In this document: in pieces, positions 44,779 through 46,652 of the stretch
Position numbering within the stretch: the first letter of the stretch is position 1
How the letters are laid out: the number at the start of each line of letters is the position of its first letter
Origin: Eledone cirrhosa
Lineage: Eukaryota
Direction of reading: 5' to 3'
DNA: 64,000 nucleotides
NCBI GenBank assembly: GCA_964016885.1
Contig: OZ024742.1
Location: forward strand, 159,340,001 to 159,404,000
Position numbers and translations under genes: made by a program
The notes under the pieces: model-generated
Seen by the model: the letters and a program-made list of their open reading frames with translations, nothing else
The model's database searches: none
What the model was told of the DNA's origin: nothing

Positions 44779-46652
44779 AAGTATGTATACGTACATACAT
44801 ATATGTATACAGACGTACAGTAGTATGTATATATATATACATACATGCACACATATATATACATATGTACGTATGGATTCACCGAACATTTATTATCTTG
44901 CTCGGTGTGTTTGTAAACAAACATCCCGTATTAAGCCGTAGTGTCCAGCAACCATCGTTGCTCGTTTGTTCAACACTGACAAAGGAACGCTGTACTAGTT
45001 TCAAGCTTATTAGTTATCGTCAGCAACGTATACCTTCCTGCCAGATGATTGAACGTCTGAAAGTATATACTTTCCTTATGCATATTAACGGCTGAGTAGC
45101 CCAATTTGCATATCGCGTGGGTTAATCGGCCGGGTGCACCGAAAACGATAATCGGAAAAAATGAAACGAAATTTCATTTCCCACTCTTAGTACGGCTGTT
45201 ACTTAAATATAAATATGTATACGTACATACATATATGTATACAGACGTACAGAAGTATGTATATATACATACATGCAGACATATATATATATATGTACAT
45301 ATGGATTCACCGAACATTTATTATAATGCTCGGTGTATTTGTAAACAAACATCCCGTATTAAGCCGTAGTGTCTAGCAACCATCGCTGCTCGTTTGTTCA
45401 ACACTGACAAAGGAACGCTGTACTAGTTTCAAGCTTATTAGCTATCAAGACGTATTCAGACGCTCAATCATCTGGCAGGAAGGTATACGTTGCTGGCGAT
45501 AGCTAATAAGCTTGAAACTAGTACAGCGTTCCTTTGTCAGTGTTGAACAAACGAGCAACGATGGTTGCTAGACACTACGGCTTTATACGGGATGTTTGTT
45601 TACAAACACACCGAGCATTATAATAAATGTTCGGTGAATCCATACGTACATATATATATATATGTGTGCATGTATGTATATATACATACTACTGTACGTC
45701 TGTATACATATATGTATGTACATATACATACTTATATTTAAGTAACAGCCGTACTAAGAGTGGGAAATGAAATTTCGTTTCATTTTTTCCGTTTATCGTT
45801 TTCGGTGCACCCGGCCGATTAACCCACGCAATATGCAAATTGGGCTACTCAGCCGTTAATATGCATAAGGAAAGTATATACTTTCAGACGTTCAATCATC
45901 TGGCAGGAAGGTATACGTTGCTGACGATAGCTAGTAAGCTTGAAACTAGTACAGCGTTCCTTTGTCAGTGTTGAACAAACGAGCAATGATGGTTGCTAGA
46001 CACTACGGCTTAATACGGGATGTTTGTTTACAAACACACCGAGCATGATAATAAATGTTCGGTGAATCCATACGTACATATATATATATATGTGTGCATG
46101 TATGTATATATACATACTACTGTACGTCTGTATACATATATGTATGTACATATACATACTTATATTTAAGTAACAGCCGTACTAAGAGTGGGAAATGAAA
46201 TTTCGTTTCATTTTTTCCGTTTATCGTTTTCGGTGCACCCGGCCGATTAACCCACGCAATATGCAAATTGGGCTACTCAGCCGTTAATATGCATAAGGAA
46301 AGTATATACTTTCAGACGTTCAATCATCTGGCAGGAAGGTATACGTTGCTGACGATAGCTAGTAAGCTTGAAACTAGTACAGCGTTCCTTTGTCAGTGTT
46401 GAACAAACGAGCAATGATGGTTGCTAGACACTACGGCTTAATACGGGATGTTTGTTTACAAACACACCGAGCATGATAATAAATGTTCGGTGAATCCATA
46501 CGTACATACATATATGTGTGCATGTATGTATATATATATACATACTACTGTACGTCTGTATACATATATGTATGTACGTATACATACTTATATTTAAGTA
46601 ACAGCCGTACTCTAGAGTGGGAAATGAAATTTCGTTTCATTTTTTCCGTTTA
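44779..46652. mobile_element. HHR-bearing repeat family A, locus 2 (tandem 428-nt monomers in a fold-back array)
   Basis: HHR cores recur at 45493, 45921 and 46349 (+). Minus copies start at 44983 and 45411 (the latter partial). Orientation flips at ~45447-45455. (TA)n on both sides. Confidence 0.9.
45905..45961 (+). ncRNA. Type I hammerhead ribozyme, family A representative
   Basis: AGGAA-ggtata-CGTTG CTGACGA T AGCT-AGTA-AGCT T GAAA CTAG TA^CAGCG-TTCCT: bulged stem I, core, stem II, palindromic stem III and a GUA site. Confidence 0.82.

Follow-up and report, generated by a model that had tools for sequence, protein, structure and literature searches.

Head-to-head hammerhead retrozyme insertions in Eledone cirrhosa have two fixed internal ends and suggest Penelope-like mobilisation

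Animal retrozymes without long terminal repeats (non-LTR retrozymes), as described from coral, mussel and axolotl in the available parts of Cervera and de la Pena 2020 (PMC7229834), are non-coding tandem units of 150-450 bp with a GC content under 50% that carry one type I hammerhead ribozyme (HHR) each, reach thousands of copies, form highly self-paired monomers and co-exist with Penelope-like elements (PLEs), which have already been proposed there to mobilise them. This study examined a retrozyme of the same type, family A, in a 64,000-nucleotide stretch of the Eledone cirrhosa genome (assembly GCA_964016885.1, contig OZ024742.1, forward-strand positions 159,340,001 to 159,404,000; hereafter the window, to which all plain coordinates refer), where it occupies positions 44772-46652. 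An initial annotation made from the sequence alone had proposed a tandem non-LTR retrozyme, and this assignment holds: the unit is 428 nt long with one type I HHR, its GC content is 37%, and its longest ATG-initiated open reading frame (ORF), in any frame, is at most 56 amino acids, which makes it non-coding. Family A shows the tandem units of 150-450 bp, the self-pairing and the target duplication of more than 4 bp that characterise non-LTR retrozymes, while the units of this genome (428 nt, with relatives of 466-500 nt) lie at or above the range given in those parts of PMC7229834. Circles have been shown for the retrozymes described there, whereas for family A a circle is predicted from the DNA; conversely, the head-to-head arms, two internal ends and (TA)n targeting described below were not found in the parts of that source available. 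Family A is not an autonomous PLE, being non-coding and having no ORF that joins a reverse transcriptase (RT) to a GIY-YIG domain. It also differs from the LTR retrozymes of plants, which carry a type III HHR within LTRs and make a 4-bp duplication, whereas family A is type I and tandem with a duplication of 8-9 bp; an LTR layout was seen in no mapped locus, primer-binding sites and polypurine tracts not having been looked for.

The locus is a single insertion made of two head-to-head arms set within (TA)n, with target tracts at 44647-44779 on the left and 46653-46750 on the right (neither with an assigned strand). The plus-strand arm (45455-46652, 2.8 units) has its 5' end at unit position 363 and its 3' end at position 275, counted from the G of the GUA triplet at 45949; Tandem Repeats Finder returned a period of 428, 2.8 copies and a 97% match for 45455-46652, confirming the period; the plus-strand cores first reported at 45493, 45921 and 46349 were also recovered. 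The minus-strand arm (44772-45446, 675 bp) begins at unit position ~406 and ends at position ~213-220 (...CATACTT/ATAT). It had been recorded as 1.5 units in the opposite orientation, which is right as to orientation; its size is about 1.6 units, and its being an arm of the same insertion had been missed. The 5' ends of the two arms meet at an 8-nt filler (45447-45454). The 3' ends of the minus and plus arms correspond, respectively, to a short and a long start site, and the segment between these two sites (46594-46652, plus strand) forms a PLE-type tail containing the hairpin GGAAATGAAA/TTTCATTTTTTCC, a relative of which is also present in families B and C.

Four full-length HHR motifs are found at the locus. 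The type I HHR at 45905-45961 (plus strand, core from 45921) has CUGACGA, a U-U at the base of stem II, GAAA and the palindrome ACUAGU, with a predicted GUA^C cut at 45951/45952, and that at 46333-46389 (plus strand, core from 46349) is identical to it in sequence. The HHR at 45477-45533 (plus strand, core from 45493) has its core changed to CUGGCGA, by which it is probably impaired, and the type I HHR at 44983-45039 (minus strand, predicted cut between 44993 and 44992) has an intact core and a G-to-A mismatch in stem II; both changes had been correctly noted at the outset. The claim of an HHR in every unit is valid for these four motifs but not for the 5'-truncated minus-strand copy at 45411-45446, which lacks CUGAC. 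Because the HHRs with cores at 45921 and 46349 are the only ones intact in both core and stems, one clean 428-nt monomer, the cut-to-cut candidate circle at 45952-46379 (plus strand), could be released from this locus. The predicted release of exact 428-nt RNAs would thus apply to that one monomer; the linear cleaved form, as shown below, is not what the insertions were copied from. The same two HHRs share a loop-2 change, AGUA, that is absent from the other copies at the locus and present in 2 of 218 sampled copies, and one plus unit therefore probably arose by local duplication or conversion.

Insertion ends were mapped in 80 stretches, fetched from the first 100 HHR-motif matches on one contig (C1), in which arms of at least 80 nt were scored; further sets of loci were chosen by similarity, tandem spacing or the GUU cleavage site. 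Among 124 arms in the 80 loci, 52 had their 3' end at the short site (unit positions 205-222) and 51 at the long site (258-278), leaving 21 elsewhere. The two sites are ~56 nt apart within the unit and far from the cleavage site, while the 5' ends of the arms are scattered along the unit. ATATAT or TATATA was found within 22 nt of 86 of the 103 typed ends compared to 4 of the 21 others, the microhomology with the target at the start sites is 3-5 nt (AUAU), and at least 8 nt of TA flanked both sides of 37 of 54 two-ended insertions. There were 37 head-to-head pairs in the 80 loci, a few of them short and doubtful matches, and all 22 in which both ends could be typed combined one long with one short end. 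Over all sets, once loci that overlapped and four long arrays truncated on retrieval had been set aside, there were 74 such pairs, 28 with an untyped end and 46 with both ends typed; 44 of the 46 were long plus short, one was long-long and one short-short (one duplicated locus is counted twice; binomial p ~1e-11 against one half). Judging from these positions, it is two internal start sites of reverse transcription, and not the ribozyme, that determine where the insertions end.

A target duplication could be read at one site. A lone family-A arm (1785-2661 of locus L053) lies in the coding region of the element PLE3, for which the empty site is known, and is bounded by a target duplication of 8-9 bp. 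An empty site was in hand for none of the 54 two-ended insertions, and duplications elsewhere are hidden in (TA)n. Two other interpretations of these data were rejected: de novo synthesis of (TA)n by the RT, for which the 54 insertions offer no empty site and the one known site gained no TA, and a retrozyme-PLE hybrid insertion at L053, as both flanks are contiguous PLE3 sequence. The L053 locus is itself partly duplicated locally in inverted form.

This anatomy is best understood by comparison with endonuclease-bearing PLEs (Penelope/Poseidon, Neptune and Naiad), for which the parts available of PMC8557442 and PMC3846280 describe as signature a 5'-truncated copy in inverted orientation, a tail on one of the two ends and insertion into (TA)n, and PMC11167929 shows in vitro that the tail lies between two internal RT start sites and that the protein nicks and extends both strands. 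Family A shares with these elements, as far as the same parts of the three sources go, the inverted 5'-truncated copy and one-end tail, the two internal start sites and the AT-rich or (TA)n targets. It differs from them in having no ORF, a canonical rather than minimal HHR, a tail of ~56 nt and arms of several units, and its 3-5 nt of target microhomology contrasts with the Anolis PLE, which starts without homology. The two internal ends, inverted arm and TA targets thus back the original suggestion of insertion by a PLE, and it is very probable that the ends of family A were made by PLE-type priming at two sites by a protein with RT and GIY-YIG domains. A different origin of the inverted arm, in which DNA would fold back or prime itself on an antisense template in place of a second target-primed event, has been proposed for rotifer PLEs (in the parts available of PMC3846280), and in a few insertions (L011, L037, L156, L160) both arms do start at the same unit position. 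However, the 5' ends differ in most pairs, and fold-back gives no reason for the second arm to end, in 44 of 46 pairs, at the fixed site that the first did not use, so that it appears improbable.

The window itself offers a model for this pattern. An intact, recently active autonomous element, PLE1, lies at 35075-40111, where its 5' copy is inverted and its tail measures 36 nt, and encodes at 36501-38834 (plus strand) an intact open frame of 777 amino acids with RT, CX4CX2C linker and GIY-YIG domain; it is classed as Neptune-type because of this linker. All 58 scored matches to PLE1 were 99-100% identical and most were free of stops. Its ends are 36 nt apart, and one of each was present in all four inverted copies that showed both ends (20 loci). 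PLE1 serves as a model for the insertion pattern and was not identified as the driver of family A. In the search for a driver, PLE-like coding fragments were found in 33 of 176 loci, and among 56 5' neighbours of single arms that did not start in TA, only that of L053 lay directly against PLE coding sequence. Two further observations concern PLEs in the window. The pseudo-LTR (pLTR) of PLE1 contains at ~39944-39982 a putative minimal-hammerhead-like motif with an ACCGGU palindrome and U3/A8 replacing C3/G8 in hammerhead numbering. A second PLE of Neptune type, degraded and with a 3' region rich in microsatellites, is present at 56738-58388, and copies related to it have open frames of 750-800 amino acids.

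The two arms of an insertion were copied from one variant, that is, from a shared template. Discordance at diagnostic sites was 7.5% between opposite arms (155/2,057) compared to 34.7% between loci (189,680/547,237), and 10.4% within arms (231/2,223), a conservative comparison in that separate insertions lying side by side were scored as within. A rare variant was shared by all overlapping copies of the two arms in 16 of 50 two-arm insertions. In L161, a young insertion of ~3.7 plus 5.0 units that differ by a single substitution, one rare variant occurs in all nine copies and in no other sampled locus. In a register test of 24 insertions, units matched in register were no more alike than neighbours (113:126:117, counts that are non-independent). 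Given the near-identity of the units of L161 and the lack of excess in the register test, the template was homogeneous, which would fit either a monomer circle read repeatedly or the transcript of a young, uniform array.

The arms read through the cut site. The 25 nt following it occur 11,525 times in the genome, 1,596 times without the preceding A, and 94 of 100 such copies listed have U in its place, forming a GUU subfamily; all 30 copies without the A that were inspected, some of which share an insertion, run upstream into family sequence. Since arms almost never stop at the cut, the linear cleaved monomer is not the template. This bears on the possibility that linear cleaved monomers were joined by precise template jumping of a telomerase-like RT, which would presumably likewise yield exact head-to-tail junctions at the cut site. 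Under such a process some arms should stop at the cut, but only 2 of 124 5' ends fall within unit positions 1-12 (in a sample biased towards arms that cross it) and none of the 30 unbiased cases stops there; subfamilies should also be mixed within arms, yet the discordance there is 231/2,223 against 35% between loci. Template jumping is held to be very unlikely.

The ribozyme was characterised in 218 copies from 129 loci, chosen by flanking sequence. The CUGANGA...GAAA...UH core is intact in 190 of these copies, with three helices in type I order, and the cleavage triplet is GUA in 186, GUU in 25 and GUG in one. The short palindromic helix III (stem III) reported for the locus is borne out more widely, ACUAGU being present in 203 of the 218. 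One stem I pair varies by subfamily (UG 130, AU 38, GU 38) with pairing kept, and in family B, compared with family A, both partners are changed in two pairs of stem I and in two to three of stem II; on these alignments helices I and II covary between subfamilies, in subfamily-level changes that represent few independent events. A helix III of one base pair capped by a palindromic tetraloop is likewise found in newt satellite 2 and in axolotl HHR_Amex1/2, and the U-U at the base of stem II in HHR_Amex2, two features that family A joins in a single motif. The one-pair form with palindromic loop is described in the available parts of PMC4209133 and PMC7229834 as requiring a dimer. We infer that family-A units are cleaved at GUA. 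The monomer at 45952-46379 is highly self-paired (z -6.3 when linear; -128 kcal/mol and z -6.2 when folded as a circle), a score to which an AT-rich palindromic stretch contributes.

Taken together, these results are compatible with twin target-primed rolling-circle reverse transcription, in which a PLE dimer acting on both strands copies one ribozyme-made circular RNA from two sites, a reading to which we assign a probability of roughly 0.4. Tandem units would first be transcribed; adjacent hammerheads would pair through their ACUAGU palindromes and cut at GUA to give 428-nt monomers, which a host ligase would close, as in known retrozymes. A PLE protein, probably a dimer, would then bind the hairpin region and nick the two strands of a target that is AT-rich or consists of (TA)n. 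On the same RNA, the first cDNA would start at unit position ~216-220 and the second at ~276, primed through AUAU microhomology. Each RT would run on past the cleavage junction over a distance that varies and can reach several units, and the cDNA ends would be joined head-to-head, or one arm to the target, as the resulting DNA displays; some arrays would lengthen later by local duplication, of which the DNA also bears the trace. Within PLE-type two-site priming, the odds that the template was a monomer circle are about even.

There are several observations that weigh against this reading. On the side of the ribozyme, the search with hammerhead models that had been put forward as a check gave no match in Rfam scans at three scales (although such a match is not a defining property), constraining the fold to either hammerhead form costs 11-13 kcal/mol in stability, and the dimer gains just 2.4 kcal/mol over a pair of monomers. 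On the side of the enzyme, the PLE studied in vitro used mainly uncleaved RNA and did not need HHR cleavage (PMC11167929), the family-A tail of ~56 nt exceeds the 30-40 bp described for PLEs, none of the three retrozyme families shows significant similarity at the DNA level to PLE1 or to what was inspected of the 3' regions of PLE2 and PLE3, and neither a driver nor a shared pLTR was identified among these three elements. On the side of the template, a segment's nearest neighbour came from its own locus in just 35 of 212 cases, with 11 ties; alternating AB arrays (L055, L030, L160), a period-4 array (L163) and heterogeneous long arrays (L162, L164) exist; and two variants are common to single units across the arms of L156. 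These arrays and variants require later duplication or multimeric templates, and the copies show that some arrays did grow after insertion by local duplication. Dimeric circles are not needed to explain the AB alternation, for which a period-2 duplication after insertion suffices. The arrays with higher-order periods of 2 or 4 (L160, L163, L055, L030) also suggest a route from retrozyme insertion to satellite.

An alternative keeps the PLE machinery but takes as template an uncleaved linear multimer transcribed from young, homogeneous arrays, with ribozyme and any circle as side products and unequal exchange lengthening the arrays. In vitro, RNA that had not been processed served as the main substrate (PMC11167929), arrays homogeneous enough to act as sources are present (L161, L205-206), the alternating and higher-order arrays reveal expansion at the DNA level, and a palindromic helix III predicts weak cleavage. 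However, where every unit of the two arms of an insertion carries a rare variant, repetition of one monomer is the simplest explanation, register-matched units show no excess similarity, and the retention by subfamilies of compensated stems and a permitted triplet suggests that cleavage matters for spread. The multimer template thus appears a plausible competitor, held somewhat less probable than a monomer circle.

With regard to earlier work, the same conclusion, that PLEs mobilise non-LTR retrozymes, was reached for vertebrate retrozymes as PLE derivatives (the parts available of Li et al. 2026, 10.64898/2026.07.22.740005); in those parts it rests on co-occurrence and pLTR similarity, whereas here it rests on insertion anatomy, and pLTR similarity was not found. 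The class and its link to PLEs are therefore already published, while the anatomy, namely the long-short rule, is apparently undescribed: in the literature searched, which included few subscription journals and whose supplements may show such ends, we found no mapping of retrozyme insertion ends, no long-short rule and no inference of the template. The words 'ribozyme' and 'retrozyme' were likewise absent from the available parts of one octopus repeat annotation (PMC13282606). Two questions, namely the enzyme and template behind the insertion of animal retrozymes and the way in which the inverted copy and tail of PLEs arise, become directly testable in this genome, which holds thousands of natural family-A products with a near-strict rule of one long and one short end together with many intact, near-identical PLE frames. 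If twin rolling-circle copying is correct, circular RNA would be a direct template of animal retrotransposition, and the inverted-copy-plus-tail structure of PLEs would be explained.

The genome-wide count envisaged at the outset gave 9,408 exact 34-nt family-A cores in the 3.0-Gb genome against none in a reversed control, so that the repeat is not due to chance, and 2,948 tandem pairs of family A. Cores with ACUAGU over families A, B and C number 40,380 (control 15), and these ~40,000 ribozyme cores amount to a sizeable repeat class that Rfam misses. That family A is satellite DNA or an assembly artefact with a chance hammerhead-like motif could be argued from the lack of an Rfam match and from the reads, since no read contig from four sequencing runs of unrecorded type spans 44772-46652. 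However, short-read run X1, from which the assembly may derive, has contigs in which the long site carries a loose (AT)n end (46224, 29 records) and others that join the sequences of the arms, and the copies are dispersed on many contigs, with covariation, fixed ends and a target duplication, which makes an artefact extremely unlikely.

The window contains three family-A insertions and one of family B. The second and third family-A insertions, at 40136-41157 and 61626-62350, are both head-to-head, with long plus short and short plus long ends, respectively. The related family B retrozyme at 55534-56525 has a 466-nt unit, ~67% identity to family A and the same anatomy, while the unit of family C is ~466-500 nt. 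Insertions of families B and C (55534-56525; L205-L224) are head-to-head and TA-flanked like those of family A, and one family B arm comprises 31 units (G000:C1:5738326-5752444). The motif ATGCAAAT, presumably of the 'octamer' type, is conserved in families A (unit position ~310), B and C. The snRNA-type internal promoter that it suggested is unsupported, as five U1 upstream regions of this genome contain no exact octamer (one has a near-match), and comparison of the units with those five regions gave no convincing match. Newt satellite 2 is cited as carrying an snRNA-type promoter, whereas family A has no match to the U1 promoter elements of this genome. The U1 snRNA genes occur in tandem with 2,674-bp spacing (G000:C2:180973544-180995099 and C1128).

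Other features of the window include a short high-copy repeat at 46750-46935, 34834-35009 and 49875-49991, which is conserved in its 5' part, varies in the long hairpin that terminates it and often lies beside (TA)n, and a minus-strand 5S rRNA match at 23582-23700 (99 bits). Fragments of long interspersed element (LINE) type, at 3900-5363, 8125-12943, 18499-19596, 25660-28988 and 42640-43035, encode AP endonuclease, RT, zf-RVT and C2H2 fingers.
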